DNA from: PVC group bacterium
GTDB lineage: Bacteria > Omnitrophota > Gorgyraeia > B26-G9
Direction: 5' to 3'
NCBI GenBank assembly: GCA_024231215.1
Contig: JAAEQR010000195.1
Span: 142,755-206,754, forward strand
DNA length: 64,000 nucleotides
The position numbers were made by a program, and so were the translations under genes. The notes beneath the pieces are model-generated. The model saw only the letters and a list, made by a program, of their open reading frames with translations, searched no databases and was not told the origin of the DNA. This document shows, piece after piece, positions 21,525-57,811 of the stretch. Each line of letters starts with the position of its first letter. Within the stretch, counting starts at the first letter, position 1.

Positions 21525-22208
21525 ATGGGTAGAGTGATGGTGTTAATTGATATACTAAAAAATCTGAAAAAGTTAATTCGATTACTTATCGATTTAAGAA
21601 AAACACGAAAAAAATTCCCCACATGTCAGATTTATAACAGCACCATTATCGATTCTAACTCAGTATTAGGGGGATATAATTTGATATGTGAAAATGTAAT
21701 AGCTATAAATTCCTATATAGGAGAGCATACTATTGTGCAAAAAAATACTACAATATTTAATTCAGAGATTGGTAAATTTTGCGGTATTGCTGCAAGATGT
21801 AGTGTGGGACAAGGAAGACATCAAACAACCTTTGTAAGTTCTCATCCAGCTTTTCATAGCAATCAAGAAATCCTGGTAAAATCTTTTCATGAAGAATCTG
21901 ATAAGGTAATATCAAAGCGTACCTGTATTGGACATGATACTTATATTGGAGAAAATGCTATGATTATGGACGGCATTAAAGTTGGCATAGGGGCGGTAAT
22001 AGGAATGGGGGCTGTTGTAATAGAAGATGTGCCAGATTATGCAATTGTTTTTGGGAATCCCGCTCGAATATATAAGTATCGTTTTGAAAAAGAGATAATA
22101 AAAAAACTTTTAGAAACTAAATGGTGGGATATGCCTGTAGAATTTTTTGAAAAAAATGGAAAATGTTTTAATAATCCCGAAACATTTTTTAAATGTCTAG
22201 ATTTGTGA
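21525..22208 (+). CDS. Hexapeptide-repeat (left-handed beta-helix) acyltransferase, xenobiotic/sugar O-acetyltransferase-like
   Basis: Hexapeptide repeats [39 protein letters not shown], then FGNPARI. The start could also be the ATG at 21537. Confidence 0.65.
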
Positions 22209-24344: not shown

Positions 24345-25253
24345 TTGAAGATGAAAGAAAGACTTTTGAAATATCTCTTCAGCAAAAACGCAAGGCACAA
24401 GAAAAAAGTCGAAACAGCGTTTGGAAAAAATCCAGATATGCTTTTTGACCTTGAAAAGTTTCTTGATCGATACGATTTATTCATGAAAAATGAAAGAATA
24501 ACTGTCGAAGAACTTGTAGACGCCTATCTTCTAATGCTTGAGCAAATGATGATAGCACGCTTGATATTTCTCAGAACAGGTAGGTATCCATCTAGTTCTC
24601 AGAAAGAGTCTTATGATAACGTTTATAGCAATAAAAAGGTTATGCGAAATTATATGCTTGGCCTTGCTCTTTCACAGTTTTTATGGGAGCACCATTATAA
24701 GATATTCAAGTTTTATTGTGATGAGCTTCTGTATTTGAGAAAGCACAGGGTGTGTTTAGAAATAGGCTCAGGGCATGGGCTTTTTACTTTAGAGTTCCTA
24801 GATAGGATAAGAGACTTTGAGACTCTTGATGTAATTGATATAAGCAGTACTTCTCTAGATATAACACGGGGAATTATTAAAACCCTCAAGTTAGAATGTC
24901 TGAAAAAAGTGAACTTTATTAAGGCAGATGTAAATCTATATCAACCACTATCCCAGTATGACTTTATTATGATGGGAGAAGTTTTAGAACATGTGGATGA
25001 TCCTTTAAAGATGCTTAAAAACGTTTATAGGCTGCTAGCTGCTGAAGGTTCTTTCTATTTGACGACATGTGCAAATGCACCTGCGATGGATCATGTCTAT
25101 CTTTTTAACAATGTCGATGAGATAAGGATGCTTATAAAAGAGGCAGGTTTTTTAATATCAAAAGAACTTGTTGTGCCATCAGAATGCAAGAATTGGAAAG
25201 AAATAGAGTCACAAAAAATTGATATATCTTACGCGGCACTACTTGCAAAATAA
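24345..25253 (+). CDS. Class I SAM-dependent methyltransferase
   Basis: VCLEIGSGHGLFTLEF (motif I), DFIMMGEVLEHVDDP (motif II/III). Confidence 0.7.
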   Translation: MKMKERLLKYLFSKNARHKKKVETAFGKNPDMLFDLEKFLDRYDLFMKNERITVEELVDAYLLMLEQMMIARLIFLRTGRYPSSSQKESYDNVYSNKKVMRNYMLGLALSQFLWEHHYKIFKFYCDELLYLRKHRVCLEIGSGHGLFTLEFLDRIRDFETLDVIDISSTSLDITRGIIKTLKLECLKKVNFIKADVNLYQPLSQYDFIMMGEVLEHVDDPLKMLKNVYRLLAAEGSFYLTTCANAPAMDHVYLFNNVDEIRMLIKEAGFLISKELVVPSECKNWKEIESQKIDISYAALLAK

Positions 25254-25266
25254 AGGTTCATTTATT

Positions 25267-26706
25267 ATGATAAGTCGTAATTTTACATTTGAAGATCAAG
25301 AAAACTTTGCACAGCTTTCCGGTGACTATAATCCTGCGCATTTGGATGAAATAGCTACTCGTAGATTTCAATTTGGAAAGCCTGTTGCGCATGGAGTTCA
25401 CCTGCTTTTATGGACACTTGATTGCTGGCTAAAGGATCATTATGAATATGTGAAATTACGTTCATTGAAAGTTGATTTTAAAAAACCGGTATTTTTAAAT
25501 GAGAATGTACATTGTTTTTTTTATTCGCACACAGATGATAGAGTTAGCATTGAAGTTTCAATAGAAGATTCTGTAATTGCAAATATAGAAGTAGAATGGA
25601 GTACTTCAAGATTGTTTTTAGATAATAAACTGTGCGGAAAAGATCCAGATCGCCTTAATTGTAAAGTTTTGAATGCAGAAAAAGTCACTACTGTTTCAGG
25701 GAAATTAGATTTATGTGTTAACGAGGAGACTTCCTCAAAATTATTCCCTGTCTTGACTAAAAAAATGCCATTACAACAGTTAGCGGAGCTACTTGCAGTT
25801 ACAAGACTTGTGGGAATGGAGTGCCCAGGATATCATTCTGTATTATCTGCATTAGATATATCTTTTGTTGATAATCCCGATGCTCTATTAGAATTAACAT
25901 ATAATGTTTCTGAATATGACAAAAGATTTTCTTTGTTATCGATAAACTTACGAGGCCCTAGTCTAAATGGTACAGTAAGAGCATTTTTTCGACCGCCCCC
26001 TAAAAGTCAAAAAAGCATTTTTTGTTTACGCAAAAAAATTACCAATAAAGAATTTAAAGGGCAAAATGCGTTAATAATAGGTGGTTCTCGTGGGTTGGGG
26101 GAAGTTGCCGCTAAGCTTCTTGCCGCAGGTGGAGCAAATGTGAAAATAACGTATTATAGAGGCAAAGAAGATGCACTCAAGATAGTTGATGAGATAGTTT
26201 CAGTGGGAGGGTATGCTGATTGTACGCCTTTTAATATATTGGATATAGAAAACGCTTTGTCTAACAAACTAATTGCCGAAACAAAAATAACTCATTTGTA
26301 TTATTTTGCTACACCATCTATCTTTGCTATTAAATATAAAAAATATTTTTCTTCAAAGCTATTTAAAAAATTCTGTAAATATTATGTGACAGGGTTTGAG
26401 TCAACAGTGAACAGTTTGTGTGCAATATCTCCGGGAATAACGAATATTTTTTATCCATCTTCGATCGCTATTGATGAATTACTGCCATCTTTGGCTGAAT
26501 ATACTTGCGCTAAAGTAGCGGGTGAGATTTTGTGCAATTTGCTTGAGAAATATCATAAAGGATTATCCATTTATAAACCGCGTTTACCCAGAATGGCTAC
26601 GGATCAAACAGCTAGTGTTTTGATCCATAATAGTCAAGATGCTGCTCCAGTTATGCTTGGGCATATTAGAAAATTTTGTGACATGAAGAAAAAAGAAGTT
26701 TATTGA
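25267..26706 (+). CDS. Bifunctional MaoC-like (hot-dog) dehydratase / short-chain dehydrogenase-reductase fusion
   Basis: N-terminal FEDQENFAQLSGDYNPAHLDEIATRRFQFGKPVAHGVHL (MaoC hydratase motif). C-terminal NALIIGGSRGLGEVAAKLLAAGGANVKITY (Rossmann TGxxxGxG-like) with downstream Y...K. The start is moved to ATG 25267; the ORF-track TTG start overlaps the upstream gene. Confidence 0.65.
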   Translation: MISRNFTFEDQENFAQLSGDYNPAHLDEIATRRFQFGKPVAHGVHLLLWTLDCWLKDHYEYVKLRSLKVDFKKPVFLNENVHCFFYSHTDDRVSIEVSIEDSVIANIEVEWSTSRLFLDNKLCGKDPDRLNCKVLNAEKVTTVSGKLDLCVNEETSSKLFPVLTKKMPLQQLAELLAVTRLVGMECPGYHSVLSALDISFVDNPDALLELTYNVSEYDKRFSLLSINLRGPSLNGTVRAFFRPPPKSQKSIFCLRKKITNKEFKGQNALIIGGSRGLGEVAAKLLAAGGANVKITYYRGKEDALKIVDEIVSVGGYADCTPFNILDIENALSNKLIAETKITHLYYFATPSIFAIKYKKYFSSKLFKKFCKYYVTGFESTVNSLCAISPGITNIFYPSSIAIDELLPSLAEYTCAKVAGEILCNLLEKYHKGLSIYKPRLPRMATDQTASVLIHNSQDAAPVMLGHIRKFCDMKKKEVY

Positions 26707-26732: not shown

Positions 26733-27326
26733 ATGATGAAAATGAAAAAACTTAGATTTCAAAGGTTGTATGGCCTGATAAAAGCAGGTATTTTTTTTAT
26801 TTGCAATAAGGGTAAGTATAAGAAACTGGAAATTGGTGCTTTTGTAATCAAACCTTTGCGTTTAAACGGCACCCCACATATGTCTATTTTAAAAGGTGCT
26901 GTTGTTCAGAAATATACCTGGCTGTTTGCTTTGCAGATAGATGAACATGTTCCGGAATTAGTTATAAAAGAGGGGTGCTCGATAGGAGATTTTAACCATA
27001 TTGCTGCAGTCAGGAAAGTTATAATTGGGAAAAATGTTTTAACTGCTAATAGAGTTTATATTTCTGATAATATTCATTGCTATAAAGATGTAAATACACC
27101 TATTATGCATCAGCCCGTTGAATTTAAGTCAGAGGTTGCTATCGGGGATGGTTCCTGGATTGGTGAGAATGTTTGTGTTATCGGCGCTAAGATAGGAAAA
27201 AATTGTGTTATCGGTGCAAATTCTGTTGTAACAAATGATATCCCCGATTACTGTGTCGCTGTGGGTGCCCCGGCCAAGATAATAAAGAGATTTAATGCTG
27301 CAACAAAAGAATGGAAGAAGGTCTAA
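26733..27326 (+). CDS. Hexapeptide-repeat acyltransferase (WbbJ/LacA/MAT-like)
   Basis: IGKNVLTANRVYISD..., IGDGSWIGENVCVIGAKIGKNCVIGANSVV, VAVGAPAKIIKRF. Paralogous to the 40142 ORF. Confidence 0.7.
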   Translation: MMKMKKLRFQRLYGLIKAGIFFICNKGKYKKLEIGAFVIKPLRLNGTPHMSILKGAVVQKYTWLFALQIDEHVPELVIKEGCSIGDFNHIAAVRKVIIGKNVLTANRVYISDNIHCYKDVNTPIMHQPVEFKSEVAIGDGSWIGENVCVIGAKIGKNCVIGANSVVTNDIPDYCVAVGAPAKIIKRFNAATKEWKKV

Positions 27327-27334
27327 AATAGATT

Positions 27335-28132
27335 ATGAAAAGTTGGTTAGCAGAACAATATAAGTCTAAAGCTTCACAATTTGATGCGGAGGTCATTAGC
27401 CGTTATCCTGATTCACAAAAGATATTCAGCGATCCGCATGAATTTTATAAGGGCCTTGTCGGTGAATGGAATTATCTTGATGCTGTCAAGGCTTTAGACT
27501 GGGATAAATATATTAAAAAGGATGCGGTTATTATTGATATCGGCGGCGGGACAGGATGGCTCAGCGCATATATCTCAAGTTTTGAGCAGGTAAAAGAAAT
27601 AAGCCTTATTGATTCAAGCCGATTTTTTTTAGAAAAAATGGTTCCCGAAATGATAAAGCTTATGAAGGGAGTTCCGGAAAAAATCAAGATAGTGGAAGGA
27701 CTTTTTTCGCCATTACTTCTTGATGATGAATCGATTGATGTTGCTTTTATATGTTCATCAATGCATCATGCCGATAATATTTCTAAGTTATTAATTGAAA
27801 TAAAAAGAGTTTTAAAAAAAGGCGGCTATCTTTTTATCTTAAATGAAACCCCATATAATAATTTCTCGTATTTAGGGGCAATTATAAAACAATTTTTAAT
27901 TATTGTCAGAGACATTATTTTTCACCGTTTCAAGGCTGTCTCGACATCAATTGCATCTAACGGATTTTTGTATGATCCGTATTTGAATGATAAGGCATAT
28001 CCCTTCTGGTACTGGGAAAAAGCTATTAAAGAAAGCGGGTTTTTGCTTGCTGATGTGGTAAACACCGGATTATCTACTCTCAAACAAAAAAAAGGGATAA
28101 TGCTAAGGCATTTTATCTGTAGGAAAAATTGA
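27335..28132 (+). CDS. Class I SAM-dependent methyltransferase
   Basis: VIIDIGGGTGWLSAYI (motif I), FICSSMHHADN..., LKKGGYLFI. Confidence 0.65.
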   Translation: MKSWLAEQYKSKASQFDAEVISRYPDSQKIFSDPHEFYKGLVGEWNYLDAVKALDWDKYIKKDAVIIDIGGGTGWLSAYISSFEQVKEISLIDSSRFFLEKMVPEMIKLMKGVPEKIKIVEGLFSPLLLDDESIDVAFICSSMHHADNISKLLIEIKRVLKKGGYLFILNETPYNNFSYLGAIIKQFLIIVRDIIFHRFKAVSTSIASNGFLYDPYLNDKAYPFWYWEKAIKESGFLLADVVNTGLSTLKQKKGIMLRHFICRKN

Positions 28133-28134
28133 AT

Positions 28135-29622
28135 ATGTTACGTATAGGGCTTATCTCATTCCTCACTAATAACTTGAGTATTCGGTTGCTTTCAGCTTAT
28201 TTAAAACAAAATGGAGTTGAAGTTATATCTATTTTTTGTCCGCCTGATTTTAATGAAAAAAAAGCCAAAGATATCATGGATATTCTAAAAGAGCACGATG
28301 TAATGCTTGCCGGAATAACACTGGTTACAGATGATTATAAAAAAGCTGTTGTGCTTACTCAAATGATTAAAAGCCGTCTTAATATCCCTGTGATTTGGGG
28401 CGGAGCACATCCAAGTGTATTGCCGCAGGAGTCTCTAAGGCATGCGGATATGGTCTGTATCGGAGAAGGTGAAGAAGCATTATTAGAATTGATCAAGAGT
28501 TTGTCTTTAGGGGAGAGGAACCAAAGCATAAAGAATATTTGGTTTAAGGATGGAGACAATATAGTAAAAAATGAGTTAAGGGATTTAACCGAAGACTTAG
28601 ATGAATACCCTTTTCCTGACATGGATTGGAATTCACAGATAGTTATAACAGAAAACGGCGCTGAGAAAATGCACGAAGATCACTTCCAGGGAGAGTATAA
28701 TATTATCACCTCTCGTGGCTGCCCTTATTCATGTTGTTATTGTTACAATAGTTACCGAAGGCAGCAGTATAAAGGAAAAGGTAAGTATTTACGCATGCGC
28801 ACTATTGGTAATGTGATTGATGAGTTGATAATAGCCAAGGCTCAGCTTAAGAATGTTCATTTGATCAATTTTTGGGACGATAGTTTTATGGCGAGGAGTA
28901 ATAGTGATTTTTTGTTATTCAAAGAACTGTATTCTAAGAATATAAATTTGTCTTTTTTTGCTTTGGCTGAACCGATGGCTTTTAATGAAGCGAAAGTCAG
29001 TATCTTAAGAGAATGCGGACTGGAAATGTTGCAAATAGGTATACAGACTGGCAGTGAAAGGGTAAACCGGGAAGTTTACAATCGCCGGGTAACTAGAGAT
29101 CAGACTCTGGCAACTGCGCAGGTTATTAGTCGCTTAGGGATCAAGGTTATTTATGATGTTATTTTTAACAATCCTTATGAAAACGAAGATGATTTACGAG
29201 AGACCGTAAGGCTTTTTGCAAATTTCCCGCGACCTTTTGCTTTGCAAGGATTTAACCTGATTTTTTATCCCGGGACTGAAATGGCGAAAAGGGCGTTGAA
29301 GGATGGTTTTATATCGCAAAAGGGAAATCAGGAGGATTTTTCTACAATACAAGGTCGAAAAAATTCGCCGCTTTCTTTCAAGATGAAACCGGTTATTAGC
29401 GGAAGATTTTACAGAGTTAATTATGATAGTCGGAGTAAGAAGTATTATAATTTAGTTATTTTGCTTACTTCCTATTTATGGGTTCCTCGATGGATTATTG
29501 AATTTTTTGCTAAGTCCAAAAATTTTTTGAAGTTAGTAATGTTGAATCTTTTTATCCATGCATATTCATTTCTATCTCGGGTAAAAAATAAAAAGTTTTT
29601 TGTGGATGGGAATAATGTCTGA
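28135..29622 (+). CDS. B12-binding-domain radical SAM enzyme (class B radical SAM; candidate methylcobalamin-dependent C-methyltransferase)
   Basis: N-terminal B12-binding-like region (LRIGLISFL..., ...DVMLAGITLVTDDY...). Radical SAM core ITSRGCPYSCCYCYN. About 495 aa, typical of this class. Confidence 0.65.
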   Translation: MLRIGLISFLTNNLSIRLLSAYLKQNGVEVISIFCPPDFNEKKAKDIMDILKEHDVMLAGITLVTDDYKKAVVLTQMIKSRLNIPVIWGGAHPSVLPQESLRHADMVCIGEGEEALLELIKSLSLGERNQSIKNIWFKDGDNIVKNELRDLTEDLDEYPFPDMDWNSQIVITENGAEKMHEDHFQGEYNIITSRGCPYSCCYCYNSYRRQQYKGKGKYLRMRTIGNVIDELIIAKAQLKNVHLINFWDDSFMARSNSDFLLFKELYSKNINLSFFALAEPMAFNEAKVSILRECGLEMLQIGIQTGSERVNREVYNRRVTRDQTLATAQVISRLGIKVIYDVIFNNPYENEDDLRETVRLFANFPRPFALQGFNLIFYPGTEMAKRALKDGFISQKGNQEDFSTIQGRKNSPLSFKMKPVISGRFYRVNYDSRSKKYYNLVILLTSYLWVPRWIIEFFAKSKNFLKLVMLNLFIHAYSFLSRVKNKKFFVDGNNV

Positions 29623-30592
29623 ATTAGTAAGTGTAATTATTACAAGTTATAATCATGGTGAGTATTTAAAAGAGCGTTTGGATACTATCCTGGGACAGAC
29701 TTATAAAAATATTGAAATTATTGTAGTAGATGATTGTTCGATAGATAATAGCCTTGAGGTATTAAAGGGTTATGCTGGTTATTCGAATGTGAAGGTGATT
29801 GCACTTAAAGAAAATGTCGGATATGCCCTTGCTTGCCACAAGGGAGTAGGCGAAAGTAAGGGAAATTTTATTATTTTTGCTGAATCTGACGACTTTAGTG
29901 AACCTGAGCAGATAGAAATGCTCTTTGACGTAATAGTAAAAGATGAACGTATCGGAGTTGCCTGGTGCAGAAGTAATATCGTAGATGAAAATGGAAAAGT
30001 GCTAGGTGATGATTATTCAGGACGAGAAAAATCCTTTCGTCTGATGTGCAAAGAGAGCACATTTATAAGAAAAGAATATATGCAGAGGCTTTTTTTGTCT
30101 TCTTGCGTTATTCCGAATATGAGCGCTGCGCTTTTAAGAAGGTCTTTTTTTGAGCAAACAGGGGGACTTTCTCCTAATTATAAAGCTTGTGCGGATTGGG
30201 ATTTTTGGAATAGGATGGCAATGGTTTGTGATTTTTTTTATATTACAAAAACTTTAAATAATTTTAGAACACATGGGCAAACCGTAAGGAATACTTTTGA
30301 ATCAAATCTTCAGGCACAAGAGATTCTTAAACTTACAGCTGATGCCAGCAATACGGTTTATTCAACGAGAAAAGGGCGATTAAAGTCATGTTTTAATTTG
30401 GGCTATATTGGGGCATATATGATTATTTATAGTTTAGGGAATAGGTTTAAAAATGCTATTTTTATTTATAAGGAAGGCAGTCGATATGTAGGTTTTTTTA
30501 TTTTTTTTCTACTGTTTGGGTTCTTAAAAAATTTCTGGAAATACATAGGTATGGTTTTTAATAGACAAGTATTTTTAAAAGGTTGGTTTTAA
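29615..30592 (+). CDS. Glycosyltransferase family 2
   Basis: VSVIITSYNHGEYLKERLDTILGQTYKNIEIIVVDDCSIDNS... and the DxD region FAESDDF. Confidence 0.75.
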   Translation: MSELVSVIITSYNHGEYLKERLDTILGQTYKNIEIIVVDDCSIDNSLEVLKGYAGYSNVKVIALKENVGYALACHKGVGESKGNFIIFAESDDFSEPEQIEMLFDVIVKDERIGVAWCRSNIVDENGKVLGDDYSGREKSFRLMCKESTFIRKEYMQRLFLSSCVIPNMSAALLRRSFFEQTGGLSPNYKACADWDFWNRMAMVCDFFYITKTLNNFRTHGQTVRNTFESNLQAQEILKLTADASNTVYSTRKGRLKSCFNLGYIGAYMIIYSLGNRFKNAIFIYKEGSRYVGFFIFFLLFGFLKNFWKYIGMVFNRQVFLKGWF

Positions 30593-30594
30593 CA

Positions 30595-31581
30595 ATGGGA
30601 ACAGGTAATGTGATAAAAAATACCGAAGAGTTTTATGATCAACGTTACTCTAAGGGTTATATGGAAGAATGGCCTTTAGAGCAAAAACAGAGGGTTTTTA
30701 AGCTAATCAGAGAGCTGAATTTGCCAGAAACTGGAAAAGTTTTGGATTTTGGCTGTGGCAACGGAGAATTTACAAGTGTTTTAAAACAGGCGTTACCAGG
30801 AGGGGATGTAACTGGAGTTGATATAAGTTCTGTAGCTATTGAAAATGCCCGGAAACGTTATCCTGAATGCTCATTTTCGCTGATCAGTGAGCTTAGTTCA
30901 CAGAATAAAGAATTTGATTTTTTATTCACTCATCATGTGCTTGAGCATGTAAGTGATATTGATAGCACCTGGCTTGAGATCAATAAAGTTTTAAAAGATA
31001 AAGCTCATGTCCTTCATATCCTGCCGTGCGGTAATACCGGCAGCTTTGAATATATGCTCTGCATGTTAAAGCGTGACGGAATTGAAAAAAATTTTTGTAA
31101 CAGGTTTTATTTTGAAGATAAAAGTCATTTACGGCGATTAACCTCAGCTCAAATGAATGAACTGGCATCTAAATATTCTTTTAAGTCAGAGTTTGCGTAT
31201 TTCAGCAATCACTTTTATGGGGCAATTGACTGGATCAGCTCAGCTAGGCCCGAGACAATATGGCAAATATTTAATCCGCAGAAATCTGCTGATATGTTTT
31301 CTTCTCTTAAATTGATTGGTTTCTTGATTTTATTTATGTTTATTAAAGTAATGCGTTTTCCGGCAAATACAATAGATTATAAGATAAAAAGTTTAAAAAG
31401 TTATCAGTATTACTTTTTCTTGTTAATATTTTTACTCATTTATCCGTTATCGAAATTGATAAACATTTACTTGAAGTATAAAACTCGAATAGAATGGAAG
31501 AATAATAGAAATGAAATAAACGGAAGTGAAATGTATATTTATTATAAAAAGATAGGATCTATACAAAAAGGAGGTTTTTAA
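30595..31581 (+). CDS. Class I SAM-dependent methyltransferase with a hydrophobic C-terminal tail; its last ~80 codons are duplicated at 32482-32706
   Basis: VLDFGCGNGEFTSVL (motif I), DFLFTHHVLEHV. The C-terminal ...MFIKVMRFPANTIDYKIKSLKSYQYYFFLLIFLLIYPLSKL... is repeated downstream. Confidence 0.65.
   Translation: MGTGNVIKNTEEFYDQRYSKGYMEEWPLEQKQRVFKLIRELNLPETGKVLDFGCGNGEFTSVLKQALPGGDVTGVDISSVAIENARKRYPECSFSLISELSSQNKEFDFLFTHHVLEHVSDIDSTWLEINKVLKDKAHVLHILPCGNTGSFEYMLCMLKRDGIEKNFCNRFYFEDKSHLRRLTSAQMNELASKYSFKSEFAYFSNHFYGAIDWISSARPETIWQIFNPQKSADMFSSLKLIGFLILFMFIKVMRFPANTIDYKIKSLKSYQYYFFLLIFLLIYPLSKLINIYLKYKTRIEWKNNRNEINGSEMYIYYKKIGSIQKGGF
31336..31575. repeat. Direct repeat copy 1 (about 220 bp; a roughly 100-bp core is near-identical to 32494-32590)
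   Basis: atgcgttttccggcaaatacaatagattataagataaaaagtttaaaaagttatcagtattactttttcttgttaatattttt is shared with copy 2 with only 2-3 mismatches. The flanks diverge but stay co-linear. Confidence 0.8.
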
Positions 31582-32438
31582 TGAAAAGTATGGTGGGAAG
31601 AATCACTGAAGCAGGACGTTTATTGGTCACTAACCCAAGATTGTTTTTTTTAAAAATTTATGCTACTTTGAGATCGTTGTATCCCTTATCAAAATATCCG
31701 ATCTTAAAAAAAATAAATGGAATTAACTTTGAGTTTGATTTTTCCTATGACGCTGCTATAAAACATATGTATACTGGAACTTATGAGGCAGAGACAGTTC
31801 AAGTGATGAAGAGATTCCTGAAGGAAGGAGATACTTTTGTAGATATAGGTTCTAATGTGGGTTATTTATCTGCTATCGCTGCAGGATTTGTAGGGACAAG
31901 AGGGCAAGTTCATAGTTTTGAGCCAGTACCAAAATATTTCTCAAAATTGCAAAATGTAGCTTTGCTTAACTCGCAATATAACATTAAACCAAATCAATTT
32001 GCGTTAGGGGAAAAAGATGGGGTTGCTAGGATTTCGATCACCAATCTTCCTAACATTGGATGGAATACAATTGTGCCTGGTTTTATGAGTAAAGATACAA
32101 CTAAAGAATCTATTGAGGTTTCTGTTCGTAAATTTGATGATTATGCTCGAGAGAATTCCTTGAATAAAGTTTCCTTAATAAAAGTAGATACAGAAGGCTT
32201 TGAATTTCCTGTATTAAAGGGATTCAGCAGGTTTTTTGATGATAGAAGTATTTTACCTATAGTGATTTGTGAAATTGCGCCCATGGCATATTCATTTTTA
32301 GGTTGTACGCTTGAACAGTTGTCTCAATATATGAGAGGATATAGCTATGAAGCGTTTGAGGTTACAAATATAAGCAAAAAAATAGACATCTTAGCATTGA
32401 AAAAAACTACAAATGTTATATTTATACATTCGAGATAA
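31581..32438 (+). CDS. FkbM-family methyltransferase
   Basis: FVDIGSNVGYLSAIAA...VHSFEPVPKYF...IKVDTEGFEFPVLKG are canonical FkbM-family motifs. AAAGGAGG RBS. Confidence 0.8.
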   Translation: MKSMVGRITEAGRLLVTNPRLFFLKIYATLRSLYPLSKYPILKKINGINFEFDFSYDAAIKHMYTGTYEAETVQVMKRFLKEGDTFVDIGSNVGYLSAIAAGFVGTRGQVHSFEPVPKYFSKLQNVALLNSQYNIKPNQFALGEKDGVARISITNLPNIGWNTIVPGFMSKDTTKESIEVSVRKFDDYARENSLNKVSLIKVDTEGFEFPVLKGFSRFFDDRSILPIVICEIAPMAYSFLGCTLEQLSQYMRGYSYEAFEVTNISKKIDILALKKTTNVIFIHSR

Positions 32439-32481
32439 TGTTAAATTTAAGGCATAGTTGATATAGTTATAGTGCGTATTT

Positions 32482-32702
32482 GTGTTCATTGTAATAATGC
32501 GTTTTCCTGTAAATACAATAGATTATAAGATAAAAAGTTTAAAAAGTTATCAGTATTACTTTTTCTTGTTAATATTTTTGCCTATTTATCCGTTTTCAAA
32601 ACTAATGAATTTTTATTTACAGGATAAGTCGGAACAGGAATGGAAGAAGAAAATAAATAAGAATAACGGAAGCGAAATGTATTTATACTACAAAAGGATA
32701 TT
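32482..32702. repeat. Direct repeat copy 2 (partner of 31336-31575), flanking the FkbM methyltransferase gene
   Basis: See copy 1. Confidence 0.8.
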
Positions 32703-32706
32703 ATGA
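32482..32706 (+). pseudogene. Remnant: duplicated 3' end of the 30595-31581 methyltransferase gene (74-codon ORF with no N-terminal catalytic part)
   Basis: Translation MFIVIMRFPVNTIDYKIKSLKSYQYYFFLLIFLPIYPFSKLMNFYLQDKSEQEWKKKINKNNGSEMYLYYKRIL parallels the tail of the upstream MT nearly residue for residue. Confidence 0.55.
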
Positions 32707-34484
32707 AGAATGGGCCGTTAGTTTCAATAATAACACCGTCATATAACTCGGCACGTTTTTTATCTGAAGCAGTAGCGTCTGTGTTGAATCAGACTTATCG
32801 GAATTGGGAAATGCTGATTGTCGATGACGGTTCTACGGATGACACTTTATTGCTGGCAAGAAGATATGAAGAAAAAGACAAACGGATCAAGGTGTTTGCA
32901 TTAGATCCTAGCAGTGGCGGGCCTGCGATACCAAGAAACTATGGAATGCGGCAAGCGAAGGGCAGTTATATCGCTTTTTTGGATTCCGATGATATGTGGT
33001 TTGCGGAAAAACTTCAAAAGCAGGTTGATTTGATGGAGAAGAGCAAAGATGTTTTTTTATTATATTCGCAGTGTATTGTCGAAAAAGACGGCAGGCAGTG
33101 TAGTATAAAGCCGGCAAATCCGAAGAAGGGTTGTATTTTTAATGATCTTTTATACGGAAATATCATTGCTTGTAATACAGTGATGATAAGAAATAATAAG
33201 GATGATAATGCCTATTTTTTCGATGAGGATAAAAAGCTTGTTGCCGTTGAGGACTATGCTATGTGGTTATCAATTGCCTCTAAAGAACAAATATCTTTTA
33301 TAAAGGAGCCTCTTGCTGTTTATCGAATTCATTTAGGAGGTATATCGTCTAGTGCATTTGTAAATTTTAAAAAAAGCGGCTTAGTTATTAGGAGATTTAG
33401 GCATTTAGTCTCTAAATTGACTTGGCTTAAAGTTCAAATAAATTTTTATATGAAACTTGGCTTTGTGGGGATAATGGTTTCTTTAATAAAAATTAAAAAT
33501 TTTATTATGAAAAATGCACCAGATAAGCAGAAGATAGCAGCGCTTTGCAAATTGTCATTTATTATTGCGACTGTTGATAGAGATGAGCAATTACAGCAAT
33601 GTATTAACTCAATTGAGGAAGCACATCAATTTAGGAAGGATATTTCAATTGAAATATTAATAATTATTCAAAACGCAAAGAAAAATAAAAATATCAAAAT
33701 ACGCTATCCGGAATTTACTTATATCTATCAAATAAATGATCGGGGATTATCTGTATCCAGAAATTTTGCTATAGAAAAAAGCACAGGGGATTATCTTGTG
33801 TTTTTAGACGATGATGCGACAGTAAAAATGGATTTTATTGACGAATTGACTAAAAAAATCTTAGCATATCCGAAAATTAACGCTTTTTGCGGGAAACTTT
33901 TAGACATTGATCAGCATACTCCTTTTTCAGTTCTTTTTAAAAATAACAGTATTAAAAAATTACGCAGGATAGATTACCAGTATTTTATGGGCAGCGCTCA
34001 TGTGTTAAGCCGGAGAGTTATTGAAAAGATTGGTATGTATGACAGCCGTTTTGGAGTAGGTTCAGCATGTTATGGTGGAAGCGAAGAAACGGACATGTTT
34101 TTTAGATTAAAGGCTCAGAGAGAACTAGTTTTATATTTACCCGGCTTAATTTTTTATCATCCAATCCCAGAAATGCGGCCTGAGAATGTTTATGATTATT
34201 CGTATAGCATTGGAGCAGTATTTGTAAAAAATGCGGCAAAGGATAGGCTCTTTTTTTTCATATATTTTGTGGTGGCGTGTAAAATTATATTAAAAGCACT
34301 AATACGGATATTACAGCAGGTAATTTTAGCCATATTCAATATACAGTATAAAAAAGAATATAAGTATAGTTTTGTTCTTAAGGGGCTTTTAGCTGGTATA
34401 ATTAACTACATTAGAGGTAAAAAACAAACTGTTGAAACATTGAAGGGTAAATTTAATTCTCAAGATGGAAAAACGAGGGCATAA
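32703..34484 (+). CDS. Two-domain glycosyltransferase (tandem GT2 modules)
   Basis: Module 1: VSIITPSYNSARFLSEAVASVLNQTYRNWEMLIVDDGSTDDT, FLDSDD. Module 2: LSFIIATVDRDEQL...FLDDDA. Confidence 0.75.
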   Translation: MKNGPLVSIITPSYNSARFLSEAVASVLNQTYRNWEMLIVDDGSTDDTLLLARRYEEKDKRIKVFALDPSSGGPAIPRNYGMRQAKGSYIAFLDSDDMWFAEKLQKQVDLMEKSKDVFLLYSQCIVEKDGRQCSIKPANPKKGCIFNDLLYGNIIACNTVMIRNNKDDNAYFFDEDKKLVAVEDYAMWLSIASKEQISFIKEPLAVYRIHLGGISSSAFVNFKKSGLVIRRFRHLVSKLTWLKVQINFYMKLGFVGIMVSLIKIKNFIMKNAPDKQKIAALCKLSFIIATVDRDEQLQQCINSIEEAHQFRKDISIEILIIIQNAKKNKNIKIRYPEFTYIYQINDRGLSVSRNFAIEKSTGDYLVFLDDDATVKMDFIDELTKKILAYPKINAFCGKLLDIDQHTPFSVLFKNNSIKKLRRIDYQYFMGSAHVLSRRVIEKIGMYDSRFGVGSACYGGSEETDMFFRLKAQRELVLYLPGLIFYHPIPEMRPENVYDYSYSIGAVFVKNAAKDRLFFFIYFVVACKIILKALIRILQQVILAIFNIQYKKEYKYSFVLKGLLAGIINYIRGKKQTVETLKGKFNSQDGKTRA

Positions 34485-40141: not shown

Positions 40142-40741
40142 ATGAAAAATATGATTAAACGATATGGCTGCTTTGGATTGTTGAAACTTTCGATTACTTT
40201 AATTAGGAGCAAACTGTTGTATCCTAAAGCTCGTTTAATACGATTTCCAATTGACATTAGAGGTAGGAAGTATATTAATTATGGGAAAGGGTTTACTACG
40301 GGTAGAGGCTGTCGTATTGAAGCATATCCAATTGATGGTAAATCAACGACCATCATTATTGGTAATAATGTTCAGATAAATGATTATGTCCATATTACTG
40401 GTGTAAAAAAGGTTCTTATTGGGAATAATGTGTTAATAGCAGGGAAAGTTTATATTTCTGATTCAAACCATGGAAATTATTCAGGGAGTAAAGAGGATAG
40501 TAATCCATTAGTTGTTCCTACAGATAGACCATTATTTTCGAAGGAAGTTATTATTGAAGATTGTGTTTGGATAGGAGAAGCCGTTTCTATATTACCTGGG
40601 GTTACTGTTGGGAAAGGTTCAGTTATTGGAGCTAATAGTGTTGTTACAAAAAATATTCCTGAAAATGTGATAGCCGTAGGTAGTCCCGCACGTGTAATTA
40701 AAAAATTTAATTTTGTGATTAATAAATGGGAAAGGCTTTAA
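40142..40741 (+). CDS. Hexapeptide-repeat acyltransferase (WbbJ/LacA-like), paralog of 26733-27326
   Basis: IGNNVQINDYVHITG, IGNNVLIAGKVYISDSNHG, IGEAVSILPGVTVGKGSVIGANSVVTKNIPENVIAVGSPARVIKKF. Confidence 0.7.
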   Translation: MKNMIKRYGCFGLLKLSITLIRSKLLYPKARLIRFPIDIRGRKYINYGKGFTTGRGCRIEAYPIDGKSTTIIIGNNVQINDYVHITGVKKVLIGNNVLIAGKVYISDSNHGNYSGSKEDSNPLVVPTDRPLFSKEVIIEDCVWIGEAVSILPGVTVGKGSVIGANSVVTKNIPENVIAVGSPARVIKKFNFVINKWERL

Positions 40742-56258: not shown

Positions 56259-57053
56259 ATGATGAAAATATTCTTAACAATTCTTGCGTTTTTCTTGTTC
56301 GTGTATTGTTATGCACGTTATCTGGAGAGGAGTGCGCTTTATTATCCGGAAAAAGAGATAGTATTAAAGCCAAATGATGTAGGCCTTGCTTTTGAAGAAG
56401 TACATTTTACGGCAAAGGATAAAGTCAAACTGCATGGTTGGTATATCCCGGCTAAAGACGCGCAGACTAGCTTGATTTTCTGTCATGGTAATGGAGGCAA
56501 TATCAGCCATCGCATGGATAAAATACTTCTTTTTAATAACCTCGGGGTAAATATGTTTATATTTGATTATCGCGGATATGGGAAAAGTAAAGGGAGGTCT
56601 TCAGAAGCTGGATTTTATAATGATGCTGAAGCTGCTTATAAATATCTAAAATCACGGGGTGATGCGGGACGGAAAATTATTATTTACGGAGAATCATTAG
56701 GCGGGGCAGTAGCTGTGGATCTGGCGGCTAAGGTGCCGGTTGCCGGACTTATTTTAGAAAGTACATTTACAAATGTATTGGATATGGCAAAAGTAGTTTA
56801 TCCTTTACTGCCTGGGTTTTTAGTGCAGAGTAAGTTTGATTCTCTGTCTAAAATAAAGACCATAGATGTTCCAAAACTGTGTATGCATAGCCAAGATGAT
56901 AATATAGTTCCGTTCCGGTTAGGGAAAAAGCTTTTTGATGCTGCTTCAGAACCTAAGCAGTTTTTAGAGATATACGGGGCTCATAACGATTCATTTCTAA
57001 ATTCTGAAGAAGAAATTAAAATAAAACTGCGTAATTTTTTCAGAGAAATCTAA
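56259..57053 (+). CDS. Alpha/beta-fold hydrolase with N-terminal membrane anchor
   Basis: FCHGNGGNISHR, IIIYGESLGGAVAV (GxSxG nucleophile elbow), distal D and H (HSQDDN..., GAHND). Confidence 0.65.
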   Translation: MMKIFLTILAFFLFVYCYARYLERSALYYPEKEIVLKPNDVGLAFEEVHFTAKDKVKLHGWYIPAKDAQTSLIFCHGNGGNISHRMDKILLFNNLGVNMFIFDYRGYGKSKGRSSEAGFYNDAEAAYKYLKSRGDAGRKIIIYGESLGGAVAVDLAAKVPVAGLILESTFTNVLDMAKVVYPLLPGFLVQSKFDSLSKIKTIDVPKLCMHSQDDNIVPFRLGKKLFDAASEPKQFLEIYGAHNDSFLNSEEEIKIKLRNFFREI

Positions 57054-57583
57054 TTTTTTTTCGGCTGCCTAGGGGGTATGGGAGGCGGCGGTATCTGTTG
57101 TTGACGTAATATTCTCATCTGCTGTTGATGCTGGATTTGCATTTGTGTGTTTTGGTAATTCTGGTAGGAATTTATTGTATCCATGGTTCTTTTTGTCTTT
57201 TGTGCTTCTTCGGCAATAGAATTCAGCCACTGATGATATTGCTGAATTCCAAAATCTGTTTTTTCTTCCTTAACTACACCTAATTTGTGTAATGTATTCA
57301 TGATTGCAGCATGATCGTCAACTGCCCAACTATACAGTTCTTCGTCTACAAAAATAAGGCTATATATCTTTTTCTTGCATCGCTTTTGACGATATTCCCA
57401 GACTTGAACCGGAAAATTATTTCGTGTTACTCCCAGGGCTATTTTTTGAGTTGGTTCTCCCCAGGACTGGATAACTTCTTCTGCGGTAAGGCCGTTTTCA
57501 AGCTCTGGTTTCTTCTTGCAGGCTCCGCTGCAGCCGTATACAGTGAACATAATTAAGATTAGAATTAAGACAATTTTCTTCAT
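57050..57583 (-). CDS. Lipoprotein, function unknown, with Gln-rich and Pro-rich C-terminal tail
   Basis: MKKIVLILILIMFTVYGCSG (signal peptide plus lipobox). Tail QNTQMQIQHQQQMRILRQQQIPPPPIPPRQPKKN. The ORF-track start at 57670 would bury the signal peptide, so the internal Met was chosen. Confidence 0.5.
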   Translation of the reverse strand: MKKIVLILILIMFTVYGCSGACKKKPELENGLTAEEVIQSWGEPTQKIALGVTRNNFPVQVWEYRQKRCKKKIYSLIFVDEELYSWAVDDHAAIMNTLHKLGVVKEEKTDFGIQQYHQWLNSIAEEAQKTKRTMDTINSYQNYQNTQMQIQHQQQMRILRQQQIPPPPIPPRQPKKN

Positions 57584-57811
57584 ATATTGGAATGTAACAC
57601 AAATACCATTTCTTGTCAATTCGGACAGAAAGTAAATTGGCAGAAATTCAAAAGGTGTGGTATACTTCATCTAAGAGGATCGGTGCAAGCATAGGTTACG
57701 TTTTAAGGTTTGAGAGGTTTTGAAAAAGGTTCACAAGCTTAAATAGTAGGTAAGGCACCGTTCCTCCTTTTTATGCCCATTTCCCCCTGAATATCCCCGA
57801 TATTTGTGCTC

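Follow-up and report, generated by a model that had tools for sequence, protein, structure and literature searches.

In the O-antigen clusters of Salmonella, gene remnants mark past recombination, as do the wzy remnants in groups B1 and D1 (PMC3715488). In Rhs, CDI and T6SS effector loci, displacement orphans 3' regions, possibly via homology-facilitated illegitimate recombination (PMC5361080). Here we analyze a glycan locus from a PVC group bacterium, contained in a stretch of 64,000 nucleotides (the window), in which a gene for an FkbM-family methyltransferase (FkbM) is enclosed by a direct repeat. Our main reading, to which we assign a probability of about 0.72, is that FkbM was brought in by recombination, which left the 3' end of a second methyltransferase (MT) gene stranded.

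All features described are on the forward (+) strand, and positions are those of the window. The MT gene that precedes FkbM (MT_A; 30595-31581, MCP4650705.1) begins with the catalytic head of a class I SAM methyltransferase (30595-31335; Methyltransf_23/11/12, E about 1e-16). Its conserved left neighbour is a GT2 glycosyltransferase gene (GT2up; 29600-30592, PF00535, E = 4.9e-31), which shares 70% amino acid identity with the partial gene located 5' of the MT in L001, the closest syntenic relative (about 70-75% amino acid identity); in P0243, a GT2up-type gene is fused to an MT of the same tailed type. FkbM itself (31581-32438, MCP4650706.1) is complete at both ends and is clearly assigned to its family (PF05050, E = 1.9e-18, 67.6 bits vs a gathering cut-off of 22.7); it has 236 homologues, its alignment spans residues 1-285, and 30 homologues match it at full length. 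Exact look-ups of the MT_A and FkbM proteins gave no match, though both are deposited as NCBI MAG entries. Further downstream lies a two-domain GT2 gene (GT2dn; 32703-34484, MCP4650707.1), with PF00535 found in two stretches. The sequence-only reading had described ATGA overlaps at two of the boundaries; this holds for the downstream repeat copy, whose TGA overlaps the ATG of GT2dn (32703) and whose last codons contain the AAAGGA Shine-Dalgarno of GT2dn, and does not hold for MT_A and FkbM, where the stop and the ATG share 1 nt (TAATG). MT_A ends with an 8-codon C-terminal extension (GSIQKGGF*; 31555-31581) that most of 119 aligned MT homologues lack, and that carries AAAGGAGG, the Shine-Dalgarno of FkbM. 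Scans for promoters and terminators gave no signal beyond shuffle expectation, and Rfam covariance models gave no match at E <= 1 in positions 30000-34000.

FkbM sits between the two copies of the repeat. Copy A (31331-31554) comprises the last ~74 codons of MT_A before the extension, and encodes the end of a first hydrophobic segment, the motif RFPANTIDYK, a second hydrophobic segment and the C-terminal NGSEMY.YYK. Copy B (32477-32700) is a headless 3' MT fragment, with an ORF of 74 codons (32482-32706). The copies align in direct orientation over 224 nt without gaps, at an offset of 1146 nt, with about 81-82% identity (self-BLAST E = 3e-57). This is far above the random expectation of 27%, and the direct repeat is beyond chance. 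When the whole window was compared with itself by BLAST, this was the sole strong internal repeat, the other match being an 81-nt paralog match. The 224-nt repeat around FkbM is therefore real, in agreement with the ~220 bp initially noticed from the sequence alone.

The 42 differences between the copies leave untouched a core of 69 nt (31365-31433 in copy A, 32511-32579 in copy B), which is identical without exception (permutation p = 5e-6). The core had been described as near-identical over 100 bp, which overstated its length: the perfect run is set within an 85-nt stretch with two mismatches. For comparison, the core of copy A is 84% identical to its orthologue in L001, with pS 0.34. Since the run is longer than divergence predicts, synonymous sites included, the 69-nt core is a tract left recently by gene conversion or a crossover. 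The sequence comes from a metagenome-assembled genome, and an exact repeat of 69 nt is below some assembler k-mers, so that a chimeric contig, mis-joined across 69 nt common to co-occurring strains, has to be considered. However, an assembly with this path requires real DNA in which the right flank of tail A joins FkbM and in which FkbM joins the left flank of tail B, the divergence of the flanks lets 150-nt reads span the core, and the contig, of 506,687 bp, shows clean synteny with L001 at both sides; we regard an assembly artefact as very improbable.

The repeated segment belongs to a well-populated protein family. MT_A has 645 homologues, which among the matches listed are mostly 315-335 aa long, with query coverage of 94-97%. 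The family is characterized by a methyltransferase domain and a conserved C-terminal tail (RFPAN...YP.SK...EW...NGSEMYLYYKR), and MT_A has both; its hydropathy peaks lie at residues ~232-257 and ~271-291. We aligned 119 homologues (P0002-P0120), and found the tail contiguous with the head in 69/84 MT loci at the tblastn threshold used. These comparisons indicate that the tail is an integral conserved domain of a widespread class I SAM methyltransferase family. The gene with copy A is a full member of this family, which has a hydrophobic tail of ~80 aa and occurs in Omnitrophota, Margulisbacteria and others. In copy B none of the invariant tail residues (R, P, Y, Y, S, K, E, W, NGSEMY) is missing, but the methyltransferase domain and most of the first hydrophobic segment are.

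Outside the core, the two copies have diverged to pS 0.64 and pN 0.205 (omega about 0.16). In the right flank pS reaches 0.74, with synonymous sites near saturation, while pN is 0.20. The right flanks of A and B share 72% nucleotide identity, vs 68-74% for copy A against the tails of other organisms, and they are equidistant from L001 (23/40 aa each). Sliding windows of 62-70% identity are also present elsewhere in the MT gene. When tails were compared by segment-wise distances to L001, L002, L003 and L005, the non-synonymous distances of copy B to the outgroups were not larger than those of copy A. Where the copies differ, agreement with the family consensus is split about evenly between them; copy B is the closer one at L420, R424, F390 and S402, and also at its C-terminal end, which is the canonical LYYKRI. 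The right flank of copy B has kept 11/11 family-invariant residues and has no stop codon; with random substitutions placed at the density observed, the probabilities of these outcomes are 1e-5 and 0.08, respectively. Non-synonymous change is not in excess there, and nothing points to relaxed constraint. In the left flank of copy B, 5 non-synonymous changes fall in 10 codons over which copy A matches L001 exactly, and conserved K and A positions have degenerated. Near-saturated pS together with low pN and intact invariant residues implies that the tails diverged within functional genes, and the substitution pattern thus indicates deep divergence of the A and B flanks under purifying selection.

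These values bear directly on a more familiar scenario, in which the 3' end of the MT gene was recently duplicated, either in tandem or as a long target-site duplication upon insertion of FkbM, with copy B decaying neutrally ever since. Such an event would produce a direct repeat around a single gene and a headless copy B, and could explain the excess of non-synonymous changes in the left flank of the latter. It should also leave pN about equal to pS and a low dS, and, with only one copy decaying neutrally, omega would be expected at around 0.5 or above; the right flank departs from this, every family-invariant residue was kept, copy B surpasses copy A in its match to the consensus at several sites, and the flanks are as distant as the tails of different organisms. 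We give this scenario hardly any credence. For the same reasons, the sequence-only reading that copy B duplicates the 3' end of the upstream gene, or arose by a tandem duplication followed by decay, is not supported. The same reading called the rearrangement recent; this is correct for the 69-nt patch only, and not for the flanks of the repeat (pS 0.64-0.74).

Because the flanks are as distant as between organisms and the invariant residues are kept, copy B appears to derive from a separate, long-diverged functional gene. In our best reading, it would be the C-terminal tail of a second MT gene of the same family, either a former resident or a long-diverged paralogue or xenologue. One version of this history starts with an old tandem duplication, after which two functional MT paralogues diverged and FkbM later replaced the head of the second. 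It fits all sequence data in the window, and would also yield near-saturated pS with low pN, a headless tail, and conversion between neighbouring paralogues. Against it, none of the 84 loci carrying this MT family has a second tail, a headless tail or tandem MTs, and the window contains no other member of the MT_A family. An illegitimate insertion or deletion would still be required, so this history is a variant of our main explanation rather than a simpler one, and we consider it unlikely.

We then consider what copy B is today. It starts inside the first hydrophobic segment, most of which is missing, and is directly preceded by three in-frame TAG stops (32455, 32464 and 32470; 32455-32472). 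They belong to the junction between the FkbM stop and copy B (32439-32476), with its microrepeat TAGTTGATATAGTTATAGTG. Homology to MT_A ends at about 32455-32477, that is, 17-38 nt past the FkbM stop; there is weak residual similarity between the junction and the first hydrophobic segment of MT_A (15/27 nt over 32455-32481, read from the sequence). We found no similarity to an MT head in 32439-32481 nor elsewhere in the window, and none between the junction and the FkbM flanks in L005 and L007. The ORF of copy B has no Pfam match, and the catalytic methyltransferase domain is absent. Copy B is thus a tail-only remnant of 74 codons, as had been recognized from the start. It has the features of an orphan 3' fragment: it is truncated, lies downstream of an intact homologue, has an independent, diverged origin, and is joined upstream by an illegitimate junction.

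No Shine-Dalgarno was found 5' of either the GTG (32482) or the ATG (32497) of copy B, while 25/39 genes in the window have one. The fragment is absent among the deposited proteins, in which the neighbouring accessions are consecutive. A word-index search with the 74-aa ORF returned no homologue candidate, although P0001 shares 23 identical residues with it; an exhaustive HMMER search with copy B gave 21 matches among 1.84 billion representatives, many of them short. One short match, P0248, was examined as a possible stand-alone tail gene and discarded: its frame runs open into the edge of the contig, which makes it a truncated gene. Judging from these features, copy B is most likely untranslated, with its 3' end supplying the ribosome-binding site of GT2dn.

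Alternatively, copy B could be a functional small gene, selected to encode a membrane peptide of 69-74 aa with the second hydrophobic segment and the C-terminal motif. Its 74-codon frame is indeed intact (P about 0.08, for the right flank alone), the invariant residues are kept, the right flank is free of excess non-synonymous change, and the ATGA coupling to GT2dn is preserved. However, such a gene would be unannotated and without a Shine-Dalgarno at either start, would have lost most of its first hydrophobic segment just behind three stops, and would be degenerate at the conserved K and A positions of its left flank. With so few matches in the database, the contig-edge truncation P0248 among them, and a headless tail in 0/84 related loci, we find a small gene improbable.

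The comparison with relatives suggests how the locus may have looked before. In L001 the order is GT2-MT-GT2, with one tail and no FkbM, and the MT stop is 21 nt from the start of the following GT2. The MT head of L001 is 75% identical to that of MT_A in amino acids, and the GT2 behind it is 69% identical to the N-terminal domain of GT2dn. FkbM is thus placed between MT and GT2dn in our genome, which supports the notion of a rearrangement footprint in the glycan locus. At strain level no relative is available (apart from MT_A itself, the best MT match has 74% amino acid identity), so the pre-event state is deduced from a distant one. Relatives of FkbM are found elsewhere, as epimerase-FkbM-GT2, and the tail-FkbM-tail architecture was seen in 0/84 MT loci and in 0/83 loci with FkbM relatives. 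Composition gave no foreign signature for FkbM, with GC of 0.33-0.355 in within-gene windows, near the values of its neighbours; a scan of genome contigs with FkbM revealed no close relative (best match 49%). On the left side of the region, synonymous divergence from L001 (pS) is 0.43-0.46, and on the right side it rises to 0.64; this step may mark a breakpoint. The direction could also be the opposite, with FkbM lost in the lineage of L001, and a former MT-FkbM-MT arrangement is possible as well.

Under our main reading, that FkbM was brought in by recombination, we infer the following course of events. The ancestral order would have been GT2up-MT-GT2dn. Recombination would then have put FkbM behind a tailed MT gene, FkbM probably arriving already coupled to a tail, as its Shine-Dalgarno lies within the C-terminal extension of the tail. 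The other MT gene would have lost its catalytic head, with its last ~74 codons remaining in place, ATGA-fused to GT2dn. The right-hand join would be illegitimate, and would fall within 38 nt past the FkbM stop. A patch of at least 69 nt would have been homogenized, either during the event, as crossover heteroduplex, or later, by intrachromosomal conversion between the direct repeats. Candidate mechanisms are homology-facilitated illegitimate displacement and single-crossover integration of a circular tail-FkbM intermediate. Direction, order and mechanism of the event are all presented here as a tentative reconstruction.

The repeat could also be thought to have evolved as a switch, with FkbM excised and reinserted by homologous recombination at the tail, so that glycan methylation would vary. 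With RecA of E. coli, the minimal length for efficient homologous recombination is roughly 25-30 bp, which the 69 nt of perfect identity exceed; the copies are in direct orientation 1146 nt apart, and the predicted pop-out would be an in-frame MT of 321 aa with the canonical C-terminus, overlapping the start of GT2dn. But the unit contains no recombinase, IS or inverted repeats, deletion would go one way, the architecture recurs in 0/84 MT and 0/83 FkbM loci, and these properties are accidental to any pair of homologous direct repeats. An evolved switch is thus extremely unlikely. The on/off switching of FkbM that had been suggested is not supported: nothing suggests reversibility, a recombinase is lacking, and the arrangement does not recur in 167 related loci; one-way deletion is conceivable. 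We also discarded a mobile cassette (IS, transposon or integron): the 1146-nt unit holds FkbM alone and has no flanking inverted repeats, and the repeat is long (224 nt) and diverged. A more general conjecture, which we regard as a long shot, is that the tail coding sequence is a shared recombination handle, by which genes for glycan modification, FkbM among them, enter as tail-gene circles and pop out at the 69-nt identity. If true, it would amount to recombinase-free cassette exchange, or to a one-way off-switch, for surface-glycan methylation in uncultured PVC/Omnitrophota-like bacteria.

Overall, the arrangement is best read as an ordinary recombination scar, an example of a well-known process. 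It makes the glycan locus of an uncultured PVC-group bacterium a recombinational mosaic, with one junction placed within about 40 nt. Given the 69-nt identity, deletion variants without FkbM are predicted as a possibility, and glycan methylation would be altered in them. For annotation, we recommend that the 74-codon ORF be treated as a gene fragment, and that synonymous divergence be checked before a gene-flanking direct repeat is read as a fresh duplication. As in O-antigen and capsule clusters, a non-functional fragment of a glycan gene between intact genes records a past replacement or rearrangement, and the locus combines, as a mosaic, blocks that have diverged to different degrees (PMC3715488). 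Unlike those remnants, this one forms a direct repeat with an intact homologue at a distance of only 1.1 kb, and 69 nt of it make up a perfect conversion patch; unlike in Salmonella, the genome is an uncultured PVC-group/Omnitrophota-like MAG without a strain series. Whereas a variable toxin domain is displaced in Rhs, CDI and T6SS loci, it is a conserved membrane tail in our case, and it is a single orphan, with no array, no immunity gene and no recurrence (0/84 MT loci with a second tail). The likeness to these loci lies in the process: a segment that comes in, anchored by conserved sequence upstream, pushes the old 3' end downstream, and the orphan keeps its homology to the main gene, so that recombination can fuse both and delete the intervening DNA (PMC5361080).

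A repeat search of the window (GC 36.8%; parent contig 506,687 bp, from a "PVC group bacterium" MAG) found one long direct repeat, in which 31331-31554 (copy A) matches 32477-32700 (copy B) over 224 ungapped nucleotides at 81% identity and an offset of 1146. In self-BLAST this was the only strong internal repeat in the 64 kb (E = 3e-57), and it surrounds an FkbM-family methyltransferase gene (31581-32438; PF05050; MCP4650706.1), as the sequence-only reading had observed. Copy A encodes the C-terminal portion of a 328-aa class I SAM methyltransferase (MT, 30595-31581; MCP4650705.1); copy B is a 74-codon ORF (32482-32706) whose TGA runs into the start codon of the following glycosyltransferase gene, GT2dn (32703-34484; MCP4650707.1), forming ATGA. 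The reading frames proposed earlier held on ORF check, with two amendments: the identical part measures 69 nt (31365-31433, equal to 32511-32579), not the longer core first described, and the MT stop does overlap the FkbM start, but by one base (TAATG) and not as ATGA. The assembly is presumably correct. Neither inner junction could have been assembled unless it existed in real DNA, and the divergence of the flanks is sufficient for reads to span the core, which makes an artefact unlikely. The sole other internal DNA similarity, 26988-27068 against 40382-40462 (74% over 81 nt), is a paralog match within two ~198-aa ORFs (26733-27326 and 40142-40741; 38% amino acid identity), with a third, more distant paralog at 21525-22208.

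MT homologs in the database (n = 645; query coverage 94-97%) come mostly from Omnitrophota-like and other uncultured lineages, and are almost always 315-335 aa long. An alignment of 119 homologs and a hydropathy profile revealed a conserved tail in the last ~80 residues, made up of a first hydrophobic segment, an RFPANTIDYK motif, a second hydrophobic segment ending YP.SK, an invariant EW, and a C-terminal NGSEMYLYYKR. Since the tail is conserved across homologs, copy A is an integral domain of the family; its own ending is IYYKKI, after which come eight extra residues whose codons include the ribosome-binding site of FkbM. The translations of the upstream glycosyltransferase (GT2up, 29600-30592) and of a radical SAM protein (28129-29622) likewise have hydrophobic C-terminal stretches, which show no sequence relationship to the MT tail. 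A 652-aa comparison protein, P0243, is a natural fusion of a GT2up-like glycosyltransferase and a tailed methyltransferase of the MT family, which suggests that the GT2up-MT pair (29600-31581) works together. Two ORFs of the size of B12-binding radical SAM proteins, at 25219-26706 (495 aa, size match only) and 28129-29622 (497 aa, PF02310 and PF04055), share a co-directional cluster with several further methyltransferases, suggesting that the glycan is heavily methylated. Across the 64 kb, every large ORF that does not overlap another lies on the forward strand, except 57050-57670.

Of the first hydrophobic segment, copy B has only the final six residues, with which it starts; directly upstream are three in-frame TAG codons within a microrepeat, TAGTTGATATAGTTATAGTG (32455-32474), which is placed right at the left homology boundary and may be the scar of an illegitimate join. 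Neither possible start has a Shine-Dalgarno sequence (25 of 39 window genes have one), and copy B was not found among deposited proteins. Copy B is a headless fragment, as had been proposed, and is probably not translated.

The two copies differ at pS 0.47 and pN 0.14 (proportions of synonymous and non-synonymous differences, Nei-Gojobori) over 74 aligned codons, at 0.64 and 0.205 excluding the core, and at 0.74 and 0.20 in the 40-codon right flank; with pS high and pN low, synonymous sites are near saturation while amino acid changes are restrained. Right-flank DNA identity between the copies (72%) falls within that of copy A to the tails of other organisms (loci L001, L002 and L003; 68-74%). 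Copy B is no further than copy A from these outgroups in non-synonymous distance, retains all near-invariant tail residues of the family alignment, and ends in the canonical LYYKRI; consensus matches at differing positions are about evenly divided. When the right flank of copy A was randomly substituted at the observed density, all 11 invariant residues were kept in 1 of 100,000 trials, and 8% of trials were stop-free. The two tails evidently diverged inside functional genes, and the earlier suggestion of a duplication followed by decay is ruled out.

Given 42 mismatches in 224 nt, a mismatch-free run of 69 nt is not expected by chance (permutation p = 5e-6). The core is only 84% identical to its L001 ortholog (pS 0.34), too low for general sequence conservation to be the explanation, and searches of Rfam and for promoters and terminators found nothing to account for it. 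To judge from these comparisons, the two direct repeats recently exchanged sequence here, and the core is the resulting gene-conversion or crossover tract. Recombination within it is predicted to delete FkbM, leaving an in-frame 321-aa MT that ends in LYYKRIL over the GT2dn start, a locus like L001; pop-out at the core is thus a plausible one-way route of FkbM loss. An evolved or reversible FkbM switch, an idea related to the on/off switching raised by the sequence-only reading, has no support: ORF, Pfam and repeat searches found no recombinase or inverted repeats in the FkbM-containing unit, and the arrangement does not recur in the surveyed loci.

The closest relative, L001 (ENA ERZ23498475, a 2.6 kb contig), is syntenic, with identities of 70% in GT2up, 75% in the MT head and 69% in the GT2dn N-terminal domain. 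It carries one MT tail, with 21 nt from MT stop to GT2 start, and lacks FkbM. L003 and L004 have the order GT2-MT-GT2 followed by DegT, C-methyltransferase and epimerase genes, resembling the window downstream. The closest FkbM relatives (66% and 59%) occur as epimerase-FkbM-GT2, where the GT2 is of the same family as the GT2dn N-terminal domain. No second tail, headless tail, or FkbM directly downstream of MT was seen in 84 MT loci (80 metagenome loci and 4 others), nor a tail adjoining an FkbM relative in 83 FkbM loci (80 genome loci and 3 others). The architecture is therefore a one-off, with FkbM extra relative to the nearest relative. Against L001, pS is 0.46 (GT2up) and 0.43 (MT head) to the left and 0.64 (GT2dn) to the right; the bootstrap intervals hardly overlap, as would fit a recombination breakpoint in the repeat region. 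Within MT, nucleotide identity to L001 varies between 0.62 and 0.93; together with the pS contrast, this makes the syntenic block (30020-33500) a mosaic. GT2dn is a 593-aa two-domain protein whose halves are separate adjacent genes in L001 (1556-2579), and in L003 (11032-11931) and another locus, L099, the gene immediately 3' of MT is homologous to the C-terminal half only, a sign of gene fusion or fission within this family.

The tail A-FkbM junction looks mature (a Shine-Dalgarno embedded in the tail extension, 1-nt overlap), as does the tail B-GT2dn junction (ATGA overlap, Shine-Dalgarno within the final codons of copy B); the FkbM-tail B junction (32439-32476) is a scar. An old tandem pair of MT paralogs, one of which later lost its head, finds no support in any of the 84 MT loci. 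In the simplest history, an MT-tail-FkbM segment would have recombined into a locus of GT2up-MT-GT2dn type; we infer the order and direction of events from the comparison with L001. A circular tail-FkbM intermediate could have integrated by a single crossover, the core being heteroduplex. Alternatively, the segment could have recombined homologously at an upstream anchor and joined illegitimately within the resident MT at its right end, with a short gene conversion afterwards. Segment-wise distances do not separate these two variants, because the right flanks of both copies are equally near L001 (23 of 40 residues each). The repeat around FkbM is a fresh example of an already known type of recombination scar, of low general importance. 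Its reading as a rearrangement footprint is supported, and Salmonella O-antigen clusters offer well-documented cases of gene remnants left as footprints of recombination (PMC3715488); the variant with an illegitimate right end would correspond to homology-facilitated illegitimate displacement, a mechanism put forward to explain the orphaned 3' regions of T6SS and Rhs loci (PMC5361080).
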